A stretch of DNA of 53,803 nucleotides, counting the filler, from Basidiobolus ranarum (Eukaryota), in assembly GCA_040143965.1 (NCBI GenBank). It is 4 parts of 4 records of this genome, joined end to end, with 100 filler letters (N's around TTAATTAATTAA, not from the genome) between each part and the next. Parts side by side here need not be neighbours in the genome. Positions count along the whole stretch, not along the records: positions 40,451 to 53,803 come from JASJQH010000489.1; 3 more parts are not named here. One strand, given 5' to 3'. Shown here piece after piece: positions 13,392-48,112 of this stretch (positions within the stretch are counted from its first letter, which is position 1; each line of letters begins with the position of its first letter). The position numbers and the translations under genes were made by a program. Below the pieces are notes generated by a model, which saw only the letters and a program-made list of their open reading frames with translations, did no database searches and was not told the DNA's origin.

Positions 13392-13491
13392 NNNNNNNNN
13401 NNNNNNNNNNNNNNNNNNNNNNNNNNNNNNNNNNNTTAATTAATTAANNNNNNNNNNNNNNNNNNNNNNNNNNNNNNNNNNNNNNNNNNNN
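13392..13491. other. Assembly gap with artificial TTAATTAATTAA linker
   Basis: 100-nt N run with a central 12-mer that gives stops in all six frames; identical design at all three gaps. Confidence 0.95.
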
Positions 13492-15205
13492 TGGGAGCTG
13501 TTCAAGAGCTCTGGTTTAATCAAATCTGTCAAAAAATTGGATCTAATTCATTCAGATTTGTGTGGATATATGCAAAATTTATCTGTAGGCAGAAAATGAT
13601 ATTTAATCACATTTATTGATGATTATACAAGATACACTTGGATCTAATTTATTTAAAGAAAAGAAGCCCTCTCTATCTTTAGATATCTTGAAACACTTGT
13701 GGAGACTGAAACTGGAGCTAAAATCAAGAAAATACATGCTGATAGTGGTGGAGAATATACTGCAACACTATTTAATCACTTTAGCAAAGTTCATGGAATT
13801 AGGCAAGAAACTACTGCCTCCTATTGATCTCAACAAAATGGTGTTGCTGAAAGAGCTTACAGGAATATAATAGAAATGGCAAGATCCATGCTAAGTACAT
13901 AAAATTGAAAATGAGATTTTCACCCAAAATATCCCCAGATGATGATGAAAATCAATTTTCTCCTGATTCAATCATTCAAATTGATTCAAAGTAAAACAAT
14001 GAAAAAAATAGCATTCCTGTAGTCCCTTCAATCAAAATTTTGCCTACTGAAGTGCCCAATACAATGCCATAAGTTGTAATACTGATATCACAAACTAGAA
14101 GATCAAATTTGATCAGAAATAGCCCTGATTACTAAATCAATGAGTCACCAAATTGGGCCTATGCCTGAACAGCTCAAATACATCAATCTCAGATGGCAAA
14201 AGAGGTGCCAAATGGACCTCACATAAGATTTTGGAGATCTGCAATGGCTGATAAGTTCCAGGCTTTGAATTGATAACCAAATTTGGACTTTAACACTTAC
14301 CTGATGATAGAAAATCAATTGGCTGCCAATGGGTGTTTGAAGCTAAATACAATTTGGATAGAAATATAGAAAGATACAATGCTTGACTAGTAGCCAAAGG
14401 CTATTCCAAAGCACCAGGAATAGATCACACAGAAATTTTTGCTCCTGTAGCAAAGTTTAATTCAGTTAGAATGATTTTAGCAATAGCAGCTAAATATCAG
14501 TTTATTATATAGCAAACGGATATTAAAGCTACTTTTTTGAGTAGTGAGCTTGCTCAGCAGTTCTATATGGACCAGCCAGAAGGATTTGTGGCCCCAGAAA
14601 ACCCTAAATAAGATAGCAGACCCTAGAAAACACTCTTGGCTTAAAACAGTCTCCAAGAGCTTAGAATAGCAAGATAGACTCTTTTTTTGAAACACTCAAA
14701 TTCCAAATAAGTAATGCAGACTATAGCATCTACTTCAGCCCAGATAAGACAAGCCCATCTTTACTATTCATATCTGTAGATGAACTTGTTATAACAACCA
14801 AGTACTTGAAGACTTTAGAGAAAACCAAATCCAGCTTATCTACCAGATTCAAAATGATTGATCTTAGTGAACTAACATACTTTCTAGGAATCTAAATTAA
14901 GATAGATAGAACAACCAGAACAATAACTTTCAACCAGTCTAGGTATATCATAAATATACTAAAGAAGTTTAAAATGGAAGAATATAATCCAGTATCTACC
15001 TCAATTGAGACAAATCTTAACCTGACCAAAAATGGCTCAAATTGGATGTTGTTGGATTCAAATGAAAGCCAGAAATTTCCTTATCAACCTATGGTTGGTA
15101 GTTTGATGTATATCATGGTTGGAACATGACCAGGTATTGCATATTCTGTGGGAGTTGTGTGCCAATATATTCAAAATTATGGATCTCATCAAATCACAGC
15201 ATAAG
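13492..15205 (+). mobile_element. Degenerate Ty1/copia retrotransposon pol (integrase followed by RT)
   Basis: Broken frames read DLIHSDLCG..YLITFIDDYTRYTW, DSGGEY, QQNGVAER (integrase), then [55 protein letters not shown] (copia RT). Many stops and frameshifts. Confidence 0.92.
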
Positions 15206-15218
15206 ATGCTATGGATCT

Positions 15219-15564
15219 TGTTGAAATTAGCATTGCCTAAGCACCTGTATAGTCATATATAGCTTAGTACCTAGTTATCCTAAATTTCACTAAGCTATTA
15301 TCCATTATTCTCAATTGGAATTTACTTACAATATTTCTACAAACTTACAAGTTCTCAGATGTATTTATTTTTCAACTTATTCTAGAAGCCCCACACTCTG
15401 CACACATATCCCTGTGCCCTTTTCTAACACATTTACATGTTAGTTTGCTTACATCTGGACAAAACTATAATTGTCAGCATTCTACTCAATAAATCAACAA
15501 GTGAAAACCACCAATTTCTCTTATTCTCCAAACCACTTCCAACTGGCTCCCAAATACTTCAACA
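15219..15564 (+). mobile_element. Solo LTR (family A) with near-perfect 5-bp TSD
   Basis: Ends TGTTGAA...TTCAACA; flanks are GATCT and TATCT; homologous to the inverted copy at 26975-27321. Confidence 0.8.
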
Positions 15565-15699
15565 TATCTCACAGCTTACTGATCAAATGTCTTACTCTTC
15601 ATATATATTGGCTACTATAAAGTAGGTACAAGGGCTTATAAATCAAGGTCAGACAGCATAATTGCTTGATTTCCTTGTTATCATTTTTTCATCCTATTT

Positions 15700-17400
15700 G
15701 CTAGGTGTTCAACTAAATCTCAGTAACTTTGGTGTCATACATATCTTGCAGATAAGAAAGCCTTGAATTCACAAACCCCATGTTCTAATAACAAATAACT
15801 TTAGGTGTATGAAAATAATGTTTCTAATAACTGCCATTTATTGACTGCATCTTAATAAAAGCACTTTTGAACATCTCCAATAACTGACTTAATTCTCTAT
15901 CACAGAGGCTACTGCTAAGAATGAAGCAACAAAAGCATTATTGCAAGCTGTTCCTGAGTTGAAAGTAAATCATTATTATGACCAGATATTAAACATTATA
16001 GCTTCCATTTAAAGCAAAATACATGCTTTATTAAATGCTGAAACATTTCAGTAAATCATGCTTTTGTAAGTAGAACTGCAAAGAGCCATTTTATCTCATT
16101 TTTGAGTGCTACCAGTATGTATGGCATGAAGCTAACTTCTCCACCACAGCAGTTTCTATCCTTTGCCAGTTTCTTAATCCTGAATATCTAGATACAGCTA
16201 TGGCTGAATTGAATAAAAGTCATTTCATGTATAGATATTGTTACATAGGCTTGACACTTATATAATAGGTTGCCAGTTGGAGCACATACCTGTTATAAGA
16301 ATTTGAGGTTTGCAAACAATGCAGTAATAAGCAGGACTAATTTATGAATAAAAAACATAAATTAAAGTAAAACAAATCCTTACTCCAAAGAGTAGTTTGA
16401 AAAGGCAACTGATTTGTGTATTAAGAGAAACTCACATTTCCGGAAAGGGATTGCACAAACTGAGCTGCTGTGAGCCTGAGGAGCATTTCACCTGGAAAAT
16501 ATGGTTTTATTTAAATTTCTCAGAGAATGTTGTTCTTATGGATATGTGAAATACATATATGATAACCCAAAAAAGCAGTTATGCTTTTCAGCAAAAATAC
16601 AAGGAATAAGCAATGTGGTTGTATTCAGAGTGCATGTAGGAGTAAATCAAGCAATTAAGGAGTCATATTGGTGGCGTAAGAGTTTCATGTGCAACTTGAA
16701 TCATTCCAGATGATATATACATAAATATCTTATGCTAAAATTTCTACACAGGTATTAAACATAAAGCACTGTTAGTTCAGATAATTTAGATATACTAATT
16801 AGCTAATTTTGTCAAGATAGTGATGACAAATAAGATGAAGACAATAAACTCTCATATGTTCATGAGTTGCACAGAAAGATATGAGTTCAATCTTGAAGAT
16901 AGCAAAGGCAACAATGGGGGTTGGCTAAGAGTACCTGTAAGACCACAAGGGCTATGCAGGAGTTGATTTGCATAACTTTACTATTTCAAATTTACTTTGA
17001 GAGTTCTTTGGCAATACACTGATGTCCAAAGGGGGAATTCAAACTTTTAACCAAGTAGTACTTCAGTAAGCAATATTGGCAAAACATGCATACAATTTAT
17101 GAGTTATCTGATTGGACAAAGAAAGGATCACAAGTAAGATAACAATAAGTTGCAAAAGTTGGAATATCAGTCAGTAAAATAAAATATGCTAAGGTTAACT
17201 TGAAAAGTATACTGCTATGTACATATGGGAAATAGGATGTACATACCACCAATTCGACAGATATATCACAAGAAATTACAAAGGTGTACATACAGCATAT
17301 TCTAAAAATGAATAATTGCTCCTGCAAGTAACCAATTATTTGTATCATTAATGGTTATGTTCAATAATCATCTAGTGGTTGTAACATAGCTGATTAAAGT
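15700..17400 (+). mobile_element. Highly decayed Ty3/gypsy-like pol remnant (integrase-like traces)
   Basis: RVHVGVNQAIKESYWW (ORF 16501-16713) resembles the gypsy integrase H..G...YWW segment; TLMSKGGIQ near 17015 resembles the integrase core; the region is almost CpG-free. Boundaries approximate. Confidence 0.45.
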
Positions 17401-20400
17401 GTATAGGTTTCTGCAGTGACAAACTTGAATGATTTCCACTTAATATCATATATGTGAATATCCTATGGCTGTCTTCAGTACATGTGAGTCAAATTAGCAA
17501 ACAATAATATGTAAATGTATACACTTAAATAAAAGTATATGTTCCCAAACTAATAAAGTGCCAGGTGTAAATGCTGCAATTCTAATTAACGTATATATAG
17601 TCTCAGAGTCCCAGATAACTGTCATATTTCTATTATCTGACTTTTACCATTTTCAGGCCCACTGTTGTCCTCTACTACTGCTCAAATTTCATTAGTTCCT
17701 GTCAAGTGTCTAGTAGATAATAGACAATGGATGATTTTCTGACCCAATTAGCCAGTTGTAATTCACCATGGCCAAGATAGATCATACTTTCTGCTTGCTT
17801 ACGCTAGTAGTACTAAACTCGCCAAATTCCAAGCTGGTGTGAGCTTATTCTGACCAAGTTACAAGTTGATAACTCATTAAGAATTGCTATCCGTAAGTCG
17901 TCCACGTGTAAATGAAACAGAAATGCGTATACTCTGGTTTCAAACATAAACATATACTCAGCCATTTACTGACTGGGATGTTCTATATTTTCAGGATATG
18001 TCCACTACACACCATGGCTCAACAGCCTCCAGGCGTAACAGAATAGATAATGAAGTGATAATTACTAATCAGAGTCTCTAAAAGTCATATAATACAAAAT
18101 ATGAGGAAAACCAAGTATTAAGGAAACGATATTGCTGTTATTTTACAGTCAATTTAAGAAGAGATGGATTATAAATCTAAGCTCTTACGTGTAAGTATTC
18201 ATACAAAAGATTACAATGAAGAAGCCGCAAAGGTGGAAGCGAAATCGTAGATTTTAATTTCATCACCTTATGAAATTGCAATCCTCATATGCCTTGATAT
18301 CAAAATTGAAAACAATCTTGTTCTAGTAAGATTGCTTTTTAATCGAGTGCACCTCTCACACTATCCCAAGTTCCATCTTGGCACTGTTTGCTAGCTATTC
18401 GTTTATGATGGAACTTGATCTCAAATTAGTATGCATTATAGGAGCAGACACAAAGTTTACATGGTAAGGATCAGATAGAGGGGGAGTAGTTAAACCATGT
18501 TGATATTCCAATCCTATCATTCTGCATAATCAGCGACAAGTTTATAATTGGCCAGTAACGCCACTAAATCAAACACTGCACTAGTTACCACACGAGACTA
18601 TTTGCACCAAGTGGTAGGACGGAGACCCCAGGCTGAAATAAGCTAGACCCAATGATGTAACATCCGTCCAATTATCTTGGCGCAGATATGATATTAGTGA
18701 CAAGAAACTGGTTTCTAAAAAACCCAACTCACGTTACAGAACCCCTCCTTTTGGTAATATATAGTCACAACATTCTCCGGAATTCTGCTCTCCGTTGGTA
18801 GACTATATGGTCAGGTTGGCAGTATTGTGAATGAATCGAATACATGAGTGCCTCGAGGCAATCCAAAGCCAGATATTGATGGTAGGTTTTATTGAAGACC
18901 AAAAGATAGTTAGCGTTATAAATGATTTGTCCAATCCTCAATGTTGCGCTTAAATGTAGGGGGCTTGTGTAATGTTCCATTACAATTTGATCATGTATGA
19001 TCAGTTCAGAGAATCTTAATTTTTTGGATGCGGATGCTCCCTTAGGAGAGTAAACTGAATCATACGGCGCTCATGAGAAATTAGTTTGAGGGACCTTAGT
19101 TGGTATCCAAGAATTATCATCACCCATCATAGGAGTATCCGTAGTATCCCTCGATTTGTGTACATGTCTACTAGTGGAAAATTGATTCCGCTCTCATTCA
19201 TGCTACAGGGCGGTTTTCGTAGGGAGTAAACTCAAATTACTCTGATTTTATCCCCAAAGAACATAGAAGTAGTAATTATGCATAGGAGCTACGCGGATGG
19301 CAAACTTGACTGTATTCTCTTGACCTAGTAGCATTATGTATATTGCTCAGTTAGATCTGGTTGGAGCTTATTTGTTGGATGGCAAAAAGCAACTCGGGAG
19401 GAATTCTATGAAAACTTAATATGCAAAAAGGACTATCCTGACCTGACCAACTACCTCATAAACCTGCTCAACCCAGAGCTAGAACCACACGTATATTGTG
19501 AATTACTGAGTTTCGTACCTGAAAAATCCACTATTTCGTGATCTTACACATATTGAAGATCTACCATGAAACTGCAATACATTAGGTCTACTAAAGAACC
19601 CAGCGGATAGATGTTCAAGGTGAAACCAATTCAATTGGTACCTGGGTTTAGATGTTTGACGACAGCCGTCTTGTATTCTAAGAATTCTCGACACTGTATA
19701 GATAGTTGTTCTAATGAAATCGATGACGTCTGCAGGTATCTAGCGAACGATATTGAAGGCTTTTAACGCATAGCAAATGAAACAATTTCCGATCTAGATG
19801 GTAAATGTAAATTCAAATCAGTCATCTTTGGATCACTAATTGCAAGGAGTGAGGATGGCAATTTGGGATTGGATCTCTGTACGACGTTTATTTACCCGAG
19901 ACTCGATCTATTCATTTGGATACACTGAAGTGACTGTTCATGCTTGTCTTGACAAATCTCACCTAGGGTTATCATTCGACTTATGGCTTTCAGGGTAGAT
20001 GGTTAGCTGTCTCAGCAGAGGCACAGGATGTCTATATTGATCACATCATTTCTTGCCTTTCAAACTATACCAGCAAGAGGTGTCCGGCAATGGAATATGG
20101 TCTGATTAGCATTCAAGAGCAGAATGCGGCGTTGTCTATTTACTAGCAATGACAGATGATTTTCTTCCACGACAGTTCCTGGCTATTAATGGTGGTCAAC
20201 ATTATGCTGATCACGATCTTCCTAATATCGCCGTGTAACCATGTCTTTTCTGAAAAGCACTTCAGAATGAATCCTCTAGCGTCAACGAGTATTTGGCTTT
20301 CGTTGTTAATGTATACAGTCAACACTCACTCACCCGAAGACACACTCTGGGCTTTGTCATTGTAATATTCAGAGCTCGGATCTGACTCGTACCGGTAAAT

Positions 20401-26874: not shown

Positions 26875-26974
26875 NNNNNNNNNNNNNNNNNNNNNNNNNN
26901 NNNNNNNNNNNNNNNNNNTTAATTAATTAANNNNNNNNNNNNNNNNNNNNNNNNNNNNNNNNNNNNNNNNNNNN
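26875..26974. other. Assembly gap with artificial linker
   Basis: 100-nt N run with TTAATTAATTAA. Confidence 0.95.
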
Positions 26975-27321
26975 AAAAGCATCTGGGAGCCTGTTGGAAG
27001 TGGCTTGGAGAATTAGAGAAATTGGTGGTTTTCACTTATTGATTTATTGAGTATTCCGTTGACATTTATAGTTTTGTCAAGATGTAAACAAACCAACATG
27101 TAGAAATGTGTTAAGGAAGGTCCCAGGAACATGTGTGCAAAGTTTGGGACTTCTAGCACAAGCTTGAAAAAAGCTATATATCTGAGAACTTCTAAGCTGG
27201 TATCAATATTCCAAGTAAATTCCCATATCAAATAATGGGTAATATCTTAGTTCAATATAAGATAACTAAATACTAAGCTATATATGACTATATAGGTGTT
27301 TAGGCAAAGCTAATTTCAACA
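26975..27321 (-). mobile_element. LTR (family A), second copy, running into the gap
   Basis: Minus strand starts TGTTGAAATTAGC at 27321 and aligns along its length with 15219-15560 (shared blocks such as TATAGTCATATATAGCTTAGTA and GTGAAAACCACCAATTTCTC). Confidence 0.82.
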
Positions 27322-36511: not shown

Positions 36512-37311
36512 ATGGCTCCCCCAAGAAACTGTATTCAGTATGAACAGGAATAGAATGAACCAATTGTTTTTTATCAGTGATTTTTATGAAAGTGATTTTC
36601 CCATTTTGATTTTTCTTGGTTTATTGACTCAAGGCGACCTGTTCTTATGAAGAGATACTTAGCATATTCTCTGGGCATGAACGAATAAGATACACTAGCT
36701 AAACGTTAAAGGAAAGTCCTTGTCACCCATGGAACTTTACCTGGTTGCTTTTCAATTTTTTAGGCTCCAAGACCTACAAGGTCCCCAGACGTCCTTTCGA
36801 GAAGGAACGTATGGACCAAGAATTGAAGATTATTGGTGAATACGGACTCCGTAACAAGCGCGAAATTTGGAGAATTGGATACACTCTTTCCAACATTCGT
36901 CGTGCCGCTCGTGAACTTCTTACCTTAGATGTTAAGGATACCCGTCGTCTCTTCGAAGGTAATGCCCTTATTCGTCGTCTTATTCGTATCGGTGTATTGG
37001 ACGAGTCTAAGGCCAAGCTTGATTATGTCTTGGGTTTGAAGGTTGAGGATTTCTTGGAACGTCGTCTTCAAACTCAAGTTTTCAAACTTGGTTTGGCAAA
37101 ATCTATCCATCACGCTCGTGTCCTTATTAAGCAAAGACATATTCGTGTTGGTAAGCAAGTAGTCGATATTCCTTCCTTCGTGGTCCGTTTGGAATCCCAG
37201 AAGCATATCGATTTCGCTTTGACCTCTCCTTATGGTGGTGGTCGCCCTGGTCGCGTTAAGAGAAAGAGAATGGCTTCCGCCGGTGGTGATGCCGAAGAGG
37301 ATGAGGAATAA
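36512..37311 (+). CDS. RPS9: 40S ribosomal protein uS4 (2 exons; intron 36531-36763)
   Basis: [22 protein letters not shown]...[11 protein letters not shown]...[24 protein letters not shown]...[11 protein letters not shown]. Confidence 0.97.
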
Positions 37312-40350: not shown

Positions 40351-40450
40351 NNNNNNNNNNNNNNNNNNNNNNNNNNNNNNNNNNNNNNNNNNNNTTAATT
40401 AATTAANNNNNNNNNNNNNNNNNNNNNNNNNNNNNNNNNNNNNNNNNNNN
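40351..40450. other. Assembly gap with artificial linker
   Basis: 100-nt N run with TTAATTAATTAA. Confidence 0.95.
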
Positions 40451-40540
40451 GATGTTAATGCTGCTGAAAACATCCATAATATCTCTCATGAGATACTCTC
40501 TGGAAAAGTTCGCCCCTCTCCTTTCTGTCGTTCGCGATAG
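40451..40540 (+). mobile_element. C-terminal fragment of a Fanzor (eukaryotic TnpB-derived RNA-guided RuvC endonuclease), truncated by the gap
   Basis: The frame starting at the first base after the gap reads DVNAAENIHNISHEILSGKVRPSPFCRSR*: the (R)DxNAAxNI RuvC-III motif plus the terminal G.RP..F.R motif of Fanzor1 proteins. Confidence 0.8.
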
Positions 40541-40836
40541 ATGTCTCAGTGATATATTACAAAATTTGCTTGTATTGAAGTGTTACTTGATAAGAATGGG
40601 AAAACTCGCATCGAAAAAGTAGAATAAACTTGTGATTTTGAAGGTTTGTAGCAATGTGTTCATGGTACAGTAAGACATTAGTATACAGGCAAAACCCAAA
40701 GTAAAAAATGTATGTCTGTCATAGAATGTGTGGGTGAGGAATGCAGATATTAGGGCCACGATGAATTGTTTTTGTGATTGTTCTATATATATCGGAAGAT
40801 AAAGAGGGAGGAGCAGAAGGGCAACCGCCAGTAATC

Positions 40837-41430
40837 TTATAAACATGTTTCTACTGGTGGTAAAGTACAATCGGCCAAAGTTCTCCGTTTTCGAGTGCAT
40901 ATAGGATCGTGAGTTCCTTCAGATTTGTGCTTTCGAGAAGTGCTCTCGTCATTTGTAGAGGGTGGTGGTGTCAATGGAGCAAAGGAAGCAACTGGATGGT
41001 TAAGATCAGTGGTTCTTACGATCCATTTGACCTTGGGGATTTCAGGGAAGCTTAACACACAATCAAACATCCACTCATGTAGATTAATATATTCTTCGAC
41101 AACACTTAGATTGCATAGATATGCTAGCCGAACATGATCGGTAACCACTCGAGCAAAGCCAATCTGGCGTGCAGCATACGCAGAGTGAGGATTGCTTTTG
41201 TCAGGTGATGCGCTAGGAACTATAACATAAAGACCAAAGCATAGAGAGTGTTCGAGCACACGTTTGAAATCTTGAAAAGCCAACGCCGCGCTACTAGAAT
41301 TAGACTTGACAACAAGATTGTAAATGAAGGTAAGATCCAATCGACGAGGGTCAGTACTTATAAAGAACGAATCGCGAAACCAAGTGTAATAATTTTGTAC
41401 AGGGAGAGCAGAGCCGAAGTCACAGTTCAT
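40837..41430 (-). CDS. GNAT-fold N-acetyltransferase-like protein (intronless, motif A degenerate)
   Basis: ISTDPRRLDL..I...LEHSLCFGLY...QIGFARVVTD...AYLCNL.V..EY...WM..CVL..P: the pattern of a widespread bacterial/fungal GNAT family. Confidence 0.8.
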   Translation of the reverse strand: MNCDFGSALPVQNYYTWFRDSFFISTDPRRLDLTFIYNLVVKSNSSSAALAFQDFKRVLEHSLCFGLYVIVPSASPDKSNPHSAYAARQIGFARVVTDHVRLAYLCNLSVVEEYINLHEWMFDCVLSFPEIPKVKWIVRTTDLNHPVASFAPLTPPPSTNDESTSRKHKSEGTHDPICTRKRRTLADCTLPPVETCL

Positions 41431-45617: not shown

Positions 45618-48112
45618 ATGGGTTTCAATGAATGGGAGGGTGAACCAATTGTTCAAGTAAATCTTGAAAATTTTAAATCTGAAGATCTCAGCCCACCTGG
45701 TTCTCCTGATCCTCTGTATGAAAGCTGGGATAACGACAGGCAAAGGGTAAAAAGGGAACAAAAAAACTTCAACGAATATAACCATTTTTCTCAAAAAGAA
45801 TGGTCTTGGGACCGCCTGATAAGGGTACCTTTATTTCAAAAATCACCTCTCAATCTATGACTTTACCTAATTCAATCCATTATCATATTCAAAATGTACC
45901 TAGGAATGCACTAACCTCCAAAAAAAGAATTATGACTTGGAACTTCGTAATCTAGTAATGCAAGAGCAGCTGTTTCGCTCCAGGGCAGATAATGTTAGAG
46001 AACTAATGAAAGAGGTTTTTGTTCTTTTCTAACTTTACATATAGCCCTTCTTAGTAATGCTAATAATCTTGTTATAATCCAGTATTACGCCGATAAAGAA
46101 TTAATAAGCGATTTAAATGAGGAACAAGAGAAGCAGTACAAACTTCTCAAAGAAGCACAAGAAGAAATAACCGCACTTAAAGAAAAAGTCAAAAAGCCCT
46201 GTTCACTACAGCATGGAATGACGGAAGAGGAGCAGAGTCGATATAATCTGGCTCTTCGGGAAGAAAAAGCTCTTCGTAGAGAGTTGGGTATACTTAAGGA
46301 ACGATTCAATAATAGTAATAACGATGCCCAAAGTTCTCAAGAGGAATTACAGCAAGCTCGTACCGCCTTGGATGTGTTACAACGTGAATTTGACGAATAT
46401 AAAGAGACATCTGAAGGTCGGATCAACGACGCACTCTCGCTAAAGATGCAAGTTGAGAAAGATCTAGCTCTTCTAGATGAACAGCATTCAGCACTTATCA
46501 ACAATATGCCAGCTACAAAGGAGGAAGTTATGGCACTTCGTGAAATGCGTGATAATGCCCTGGAAGAACTGGAAAGGTGCCGGCAAAAATTAACTGAGGT
46601 TCAACATCAACTCTCAGCCCAAGAGAAGTGGATAGCAAAGGTTCAGATTGAGCGTGAACAAATAGAAAATTCACGAACTCGCTCTTCATCTGGTCATCTG
46701 TTTACGCCTGAAACTGGTTCCCAAGAGGGCTCTACATTTGGTTCCAAAGATGCCGATGTCGAACACTATGCTCATTGCAAATTCAGAAAGGTTTGCGATT
46801 TCTCTTTCGATATTAGTTTATCTTCACACCCTAATGAAAACTATTTGAATTTGAACAGAATTGTGAGATGTATAAAGACCAAATCGCAGAACTCAATATG
46901 CAAGTGATTCAGTATAAGCTCTCATACATTAAAACTGAAAACCAAATCAGAGAGTCGGATAACGAAATTCACGCAGTAGGCAATTTCAGCAATAACTTTT
47001 GACCTTCTAATGATACTAATAGTTTATTTCCACTATATAGTTACGACAAAAGTTGATTGAAGCTGAAGATTTATCCCACCTATTATCTAGTCACGTACAC
47101 GAATTAGAAGAGCAATTGGACAATAATGAACGTGGAAATACCGAAACAGAGCGCTCTTATAGAAAGGAGATACTAAGACTGGAGGAGGTAAGTTCTCATA
47201 TGGCATGATTACTTCGATAATATACTTAGATTATTGTTATAGGAACTTTCTGTAGCTATGACCAATCTCTATTCCAAAAGCCCCTCTGTGGCTGATATGG
47301 TTACAGAACTGCAATATCTACGTAACCAAGTTGAAGAGAATGTCGCCCGATCAAAAGCATTAAAATCACAAGTTGCTCAAGAGGCTATTAATCGAATGAC
47401 AGCCGAATCCAAAGTTAAGGCAATAGAACGAGATCTGCATGATAAATACATGGACAACATATTTCTGCTGGAACAGGTAACTATCGTTATTAGAATGCAT
47501 TTGTAAGCACTACTAATCAAGCGAATTACAGGATCTGGAAACTAAAGATGTGGAAATCGCGCGGTTACGAAGAAAATTGGCTAACTTCAGTAGCTCACAA
47601 TCCTCACCTCCATCTCCTAAAGATTCACTTCATTACAGAAGAGTAGGAACCGAGAGTACTCAATTTGTTAGCGAGAAACAAACTAATATATTTTTCATCT
47701 CTAGTCGCTTCATGATATGAAGCTTTCTTACGGCTCGCCCCGAGATACTCTTCAATACCGCAAGGTAGCTTATACTGTTGGATTTATTTCACACACCCCG
47801 GTTGACTAACTATTCCTGTATTTTAGTCTATTCATGATATGAAACATTCATTAACTACACCAGGCTATTCTAAAAGTCATACAGAGTACGAAATACCGAA
47901 GTCTTCACTCGGGGTATGAACCACGCCATTTATATTTGTATTGGGTGTTTATTTTGTCTAATTATTTTTTCAAGGATGCAAGCTTTGTACGGGAGCCTTC
48001 CAATTACCTTGAACGTGTCAGCAGGCGTTATGAGGTAAATAATATTGGTTATGTTGCTTAATGAGATGCCAGTGTTAACTGTTTGAACTAGGATCGACGA
48101 GATGTCTCCTGA
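45618..48112 (+). CDS. Coiled-coil protein with N-terminal CM1 (centrosomin/Mto1)-like motif; putative gamma-tubulin complex receptor
   Basis: Spliced N-terminus ECTNLQKKNYDLELRNLVMQEQL...VRELMKEYYADKELISDLNEEQEKQYKLLKEA resembles CM1 (L.KENFnLKLRIyflEE.L...elLKEN...kLL.eA); long heptad-rich exons follow. The 3' end may be 47919 if the last two small exons are unused. Confidence 0.6.

Follow-up and report, generated by a model that had tools for sequence, protein, structure and literature searches.

The window analysed in our study (the whole stretch of 53,803 nucleotides) contained three identical 100-nt spacers (N44-TTAATTAATTAA-N44) at 13392-13491, 26875-26974 and 40351-40450, which divided it into pieces of 13391, 13383, 13376 and 13353 nt, in descending order of size. 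The N blocks are a six-frame-stop linker between contigs listed largest first, and across the spacers neighbourhood in the window is biologically meaningless. Position 40451 is a true contig end, and the sequence to its left is unrelated. Straight after the third N block, the stretch 40451-40540 opened with GATGTTAAT (GATGTTAATGCT as its start). It was found, in agreement with the original prediction, to translate in frame 1 to the 29-residue peptide DVNAAENIHNISHEILSGKVRPSPFCRSR (40451-40537), followed by the stop codon TAG at 40538-40540. The features at this contig end were as follows:

40351-40450, no strand: artificial spacer joining two unrelated contigs (N44-TTAATTAATTAA-N44), not a sized assembly gap
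40451-40537, plus strand: probable final 29 codons of a Fanzor1-family gene, the 5' side cut by the contig end
40451-40474, plus strand: RuvC-III motif DVNAAENI, whose catalytic Asp is encoded by the contig's first codon
40511-40531, plus strand: Fanzor1-type C-terminal tail RPSPFCR (RP..F.R), at residue 21, about 20 after the Asp
40538-40540, plus strand: stop codon TAG, giving an Asp-to-stop distance of 29 residues
40541-40836, plus strand: spacer of 296 nt before a convergent GNAT gene; going by the S. punctatus locus, an omega RNA and the transposon right end would lie here

The fragment had originally been placed at the edge of an assembly gap, into which the body of the element was proposed to have collapsed. 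The contig break at 40451 was confirmed, but a sized gap was not, the three N blocks being identical artificial spacers. An inserted linker between two contigs that have nothing to do with each other leaves no room for a collapsed element, and this part of the prediction was wrong. The missing part of the putative Fanzor1 gene lies beyond the end of the 13,353-nt contig, not in the N block. In windows of such build, N blocks containing TTAATTAATTAA are to be read as spacers and not as gaps.

Among the products encoded in the window were a DAHP synthase, Smg8/9, UNC-93, a FERRY subunit 3 domain (Fy-3), a histone deacetylase and a chitin synthase that also has a CHS4 domain (PF03142, E 2.8e-279); the window is eukaryotic and most likely fungal. 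A clear ribosomal protein S4/S9 ORF was present at 36703-37311 (+), and on another contig a 302-aa ORF at 45999-46907 (+) gave a weak match to the S4 N-terminal domain (E 0.0015, below the Pfam cut-off). Downstream of the fragment lay a 197-aa ORF at 40837-41430 (-), which had no Pfam match at E<=0.01. Language-model features (0.94) and the predicted structure (TM 0.61) pointed to a GNAT N-acetyltransferase, and the product looks like a eukaryote-like member of that family. The predicted GNAT gene was convergent with the Fanzor tail, with 296 nt from stop to stop.

Direct searches with the peptide were empty for want of length (29 residues). The peptide matched no Pfam family at E<=10, no PDB chain by phmmer and no phage sequence by tblastn, and a word-index search of 5.8 billion proteins, with a longer reference that included spacer codons, gave no candidate sharing three 5-mers. 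When 1.84 billion representatives were searched exhaustively with phmmer, three matches came up, all of them tandem-repeat proteins with 4-6 weak stretches and none TnpB-like; these were rejected as homologues, being tandem-repeat artefacts. In 6/6 relatives scanned, the match to the PF07282 model was found to stop at precisely the N-I of the motif. The Pfam search was silent because the peptide reaches only the last 8 positions of this model.

Relatives were collected by a pattern scan of IMG/VR, in which D.NAA.N[IM], 12 codons and RP..F were required. The scan gave 8 loci in two bins, all eight with TnpB-like ORFs. PF07282 was present in each of the four ORFs scanned, and in three of the eight the distance from Asp to stop was exactly 29 residues, as in the query. 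Four of the 8 ORFs, with the query left out, were made into a profile (A2), and a search of 5.8 billion proteins with this profile, in which longer proteins were sought, gave 14 matches (P0006-P0019). Ten of these (P0006-P0015) were 557-703 aa long; PF07282 was listed for nine of them, P0011 being the one without, and was re-confirmed in 6/6 rescanned. The alignment and profile of these ten proteins (A3) matched, among solved structures, the Fanzor1 of S. punctatus best (E 1.7e-42), followed by the Fanzor1 of G. theta (1.2e-30) and that of P. parasitica (2.7e-25). Weaker matches were the mimivirus Fanzor2 (2.4e-11) and Cas12/TnpB proteins (2e-7 or weaker), with ISDra2 TnpB at E 0.0039. The relatives were assigned to Fanzor1 because three Fanzor1 structures were the best solved matches of A3; P0015 alone gave no match in the PDB. 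A protein search with A3 gave 8 proteins, mostly kin of P0006, and the sample of Fanzor1 tails stayed small. This sample is also somewhat biased towards the tail, since the first pattern demanded RP..F at the spacing of the query and A2 held the tail; the solved Fanzor1 chains are independent of this bias.

Two groups of short or interrupted genes were observed in IMG/VR. A Fanzor1-like gene on a 911-kb contig (L014, 11419-12741 (+), and L019) consisted of three consecutive ORFs in the same frame, with single in-frame stops between them, and is either a pseudogene or belongs to a host in which a stop codon has been reassigned. Six Fanzor1-like C-terminal remnants (L012, L013, L015-L018), mostly short or interrupted ORFs, were found in one giant-virus MAG bin with 46-49% GC. 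They may represent a multi-copy element, or eukaryotic DNA that was binned as viral.

An HMM was built from P0006-P0015 without the query and run, with all filters off, against the 1709 stop-to-stop six-frame peptides of the window that were at least 20 aa long. The peptide ranked 1st of the 1709 (E 8.3e-5, 18.0 bits, HMM positions 557-584 of 591), and the next best peptide of the window had an E-value of 0.45. Alignment of the peptide with A3 by hhalign gave a probability of 90% and E 1.7e-6 over 28 columns (profile columns 545-572 of 587). The profile search proposed together with the original prediction therefore gave a significant match, over the final 28 columns only. No other Fanzor fragment and no second copy was found in the window, either by the Fanzor1 HMM over the 1709 peptides or by repeat comparison.

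The D, N, A, A and N of DVNAAENI aligned to invariant columns of A3, and all 7 of the A3-invariant residues that fall within the fragment (D, N, A, A, N, R and P) were conserved. The RuvC-III catalytic Asp, the first codon of the contig, was thus intact as had been claimed, with NAA.NI after it on the invariant columns. The Fanzor family motif is given as D-X-[TS][TS]-X-X-C4 zinc finger-X-RD (Bao & Jurka; PMC3627910). The fragment covers the final Asp of this motif alone, which was present; the preceding Arg lies past the contig end.

The motif D.NAA.N[IL] occurred a single time in the six-frame translation of the window and was not found in 200 windows simulated with a first-order Markov model. 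Given the residue frequencies over all six frames of the window, 0.0015 occurrences were expected per window and 1.4e-8 per position. The chance of RP..F.R was 6.5e-6 at one fixed offset and 3.9e-5 at any of six offsets, and the joint chance of the motif and of the tail at one of six offsets is negligible. The exact octapeptide DVNAAENI was also back-translated and scanned in IMG/VR, where 12 matches were found across 11 loci, each 17-56 residues ahead of a stop. A strict CxxC..CxxC was present within 60 residues upstream in 7 of the 12 matches, and another match (L005) was a full TnpB, with E 4e-72 to ISDra2 TnpB. Truncated ORFs were found in L006, L008 and L009; the tail of L006 was the same as that of the L001 TnpB, and L009 contained half a zinc finger upstream. 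The octapeptide is therefore a strong marker of the RuvC-III site of TnpB. A chance open frame that spells a RuvC-III-like motif nevertheless deserves consideration, as the fragment is very short and was chosen by eye out of a very large scan, and one of the 12 octapeptide matches (L003) had no TnpB feature. The negligible joint probability of motif and tail, the two profile E-values and an Asp-to-stop distance that is the same as in relatives all argue against a chance frame, which we consider extremely improbable.

The C-terminal tail was counted in P0006-P0024 (n=19), from which P0016 and P0021-P0024 were dropped as having no RuvC-III-like motif in the last 90 residues. RP..[FLY] was found 17-22 residues after the Asp in all 12 Fanzor-size relatives, and in 8 of them it stood at residue 21, like that of the query. 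The distance from Asp to stop was exactly 29 in 4/12 (P0006, P0007, P0008 and P0020). The prokaryote-type TnpB tails compared (n=14) were 12 TnpB-context tails from viral contigs and two bacterial-type proteins (P0017 and P0018, which also carried PF01385); RP..[FLY] was found in 0/12 and 0/2 of these, respectively, and hence in 0/14. The solved fungal Fanzor1 chains of Spizellomyces punctatus (SpuFz1) and Parasitella parasitica (PpFz1) contained RP..FSR at about the query's distance from the Asp, and the chain ended 6-7 residues on. An RP..F.R about 20 residues past the RuvC-III Asp thus separated Fanzor1-type from prokaryote-type TnpB ends in this small sample. The RP..F tail as a marker of Fanzor1 is an empirical feature of the present analysis and has no published definition; a term search of the Cell 2024 Fanzor structure paper found no text on the C-terminal tail. 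The tail had been given in the original prediction as G.RP..F.R. Its RP..F.R part was present, in line with the RP..FSR of the solved fungal proteins, but the spacing of the glycine differed, the arrangement here being G..RP..F.R.

The tail was also scored separately. With a tail-only HMM, the last 21 residues of the query scored 5.7 bits, higher than all other 1607 pre-stop 21-mers of the window, and this score was reached in 58 of 5000 shuffles of the tail. The support that the tail by itself gives to Fanzor1 is modest, and the check is partly independent of the RuvC-III motif that had first drawn attention to the locus.

A prokaryotic TnpB of the IS200/IS605 or IS607 type, brought in by contamination or by recent transfer, would also end in such a motif. 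The octapeptide has the canonical TnpB form, and exact DVNAAENI occurs in prokaryote-type TnpBs of viral contigs. The tail, however, fits Fanzor1 and was found in none of the viral-contig or bacterial-type proteins. The contig as a whole had 39% GC and a CpG o/e of 0.72, typical of the window outside the CpG-poor repeats, and it carries the eukaryote-like GNAT gene. A prokaryotic source is accordingly very unlikely.

The profile matches, the RP..F.R tail, the intact Asp and the eukaryotic context together uphold the central claim of the original prediction, that the peptide is the C-terminus of a Fanzor1-type protein of the TnpB superfamily. Judged from sequence comparison, 40451-40540 very probably belongs to a fungal Fanzor1-family gene, of which it forms the 3' end (29 codons and the stop). 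In the full Fanzor1 protein, the Asp of the first codon would be the third catalytic residue of the RuvC site, and this site would cleave the DNA targets to which an omega RNA directs it. The roughly 20 residues after the RuvC-III motif, which end in RP..F.R, would be the conserved Fanzor1 tail, and the N-terminal half, RuvC-I/II and the zinc ribbon would be encoded past the contig end. The fragment would once have been part of a full-length gene. That gene may sit in a repeated transposon, the contig having broken there because the element is repeated, and the omega RNA may be encoded just downstream of the fragment.

The state of such an element was considered from its CpG content and from the contig end. 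The fragment contained 4 CpG in 90 nt (o/e 0.98). A CpG-depleted repeat was present elsewhere in the window, with an o/e of 0.02 in 14001-16000 and of 0.10 over 14001-18000. The original prediction that the fragment keeps its CpGs in comparison with decayed repeats was therefore correct (0.98 vs 0.10), with the note that 90 nt carry little weight. Contig 3 was also found to begin in a repeat, 26977-27321 being an inverted copy of one part of this CpG-depleted repeat (15219-15559) at 82-86%. The contig-end argument gains some indirect support from this, because the start of contig 3 also lies inside a repeat. The reading of the fragment as young and multi-copy draws on the 4 CpGs in 90 nt and the contig end only. 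An intact and recently active Fanzor1 transposon family, present in many copies and equipped with an omega RNA and a TAM of its own, may stand behind the fragment, but we regard this as rather doubtful.

The fragment may also be derived from Fanzor1 but dead, with no intact nuclease gene upstream. It would then be an isolated 3' end or a short, non-autonomous element in which a deletion has left just the gene end, together with any omega RNA region. It is known from the last 29 codons only, and many relatives are broken too, with short or interrupted ORFs in L012-L019. In S. punctatus, 'ghost' loci are described of which just the surroundings of the 3' inverted repeat are left (PMC10432273). 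On the other hand, the reading frame and 7/7 of the checkable invariant residues are intact, the CpG o/e is unlike that of the window's decayed repeat, and the break is a contig end, with no truncation visible in the genome. A dead remnant is a possibility to be taken seriously, to which we give roughly one third of the weight once Fanzor1 identity is granted.

By analogy with S. punctatus, an omega RNA and the right end of the transposon would be expected downstream of the stop codon (PMC10432273). Five RNA folds in this downstream region were compared with shuffled sequences, and none was better than the shuffles (z -0.45, 0.05, -1.21, 0.15 and -0.51). A search of the downstream 296 nt against Rfam gave nothing at E<=1. 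Since omega RNAs are short and differ between lineages, a missing signal is weak evidence. No repeat or inverted-repeat partner of 40451-40836 was found within the window except for one 21-nt pair with 86% complementarity, which is probably due to chance. A transposase was not found next to the fragment, and no transposon end was visible there.

Fanzor1 nucleases were reportedly first known from early-diverging fungi, in 2013, and were shown to be RNA-guided endonucleases in 2023. The family itself was reported in 2013 from S. punctatus, Rhizopus, Allomyces, Phycomyces and Mucor, among others (PMC3627910). Fanzor1 is described as an endonuclease that cuts double-stranded DNA under the guidance of an omega RNA, depends on a TAM and has one RuvC site (PMC10432273, PMC10530073), and later surveys listed thousands of Fanzors, with Fanzor1 "highly spread in fungi" (PMC10530073, PMC10432273). 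The suggestion of a possibly uncharacterised OMEGA system was thus overstated, as Fanzor1 is documented in many fungi (PMC3627910, PMC10432273). The supplementary tables of the Fanzor surveys may include this genome already. A literature search on the copy number of Fanzor1 in fungi found nothing relevant. As it stands, the 29-residue tail is one more locus of a known fungal nuclease family and matters little. If the full gene were recovered and found intact, its value would be modest, each Fanzor1 with its omega RNA being a candidate compact genome editor. An intact, active multi-copy family, if real, would be of moderate interest, as a programmable nuclease new to the catalogues and with the canonical D.NAA.NI.

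Among known systems, the Fanzor1 of Spizellomyces punctatus (SpuFz1; PDB 8gkh, 9ceu-9cez) resembles the fragment in being fungal and in having RP..FSR 20 residues on from the Asp. In the alignment, SpuFz1 and the peptide of the window share Ile11, Leu16, Gly18, Arg21, Pro22, Phe25 and Arg27 by position. The RuvC-III core of SpuFz1 is diverged and has no NAA, whereas that of the window is the canonical D.NAA.NI. SpuFz1 is also a complete protein whose nuclease activity is proven biochemically and whose omega RNA is known, whereas the fragment comprises 29 residues read from DNA. The Fanzor1 of Parasitella parasitica (PpFz1; PDB 9cf0-9cf3) is likewise fungal and ends with RP..FSR at an equal distance from the Asp; it differs from the fragment in its diverged RuvC-III core and in its much larger protein. 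The two are comparable only from the Asp on.

ISDra2 TnpB (PDB 8exa, 8h1j) and other prokaryotic TnpBs have the RuvC-III motif in a near-C-terminal place, as the fragment does. They differ from it in the RP..F.R tail, which was present in 0/14, and their match to the Fanzor1 profile is confined to the zinc ribbon and RuvC-III (E 0.0039). The Fanzor2 of mimivirus matched the profile of the relatives far more weakly than Fanzor1 did (2.4e-11 vs 1.7e-42). The proteins P0006-P0008, P0012 and P0020 (557-735 aa, with PF07282, from public assemblies) contained, like the fragment, the canonical D.NAA.N[IM] together with RP..F at residue 21. P0012 had an Asp-to-stop distance of 30 residues; in the other four it was 29, as in the fragment. 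Aligned without gaps, P0006-P0008 and P0012, the nearest sequences found, shared 12-13/29 residues with the peptide, and P0020 shared 9/29. At 31-45% identity over 29 residues, none of these proteins is a close relative of the fragment.
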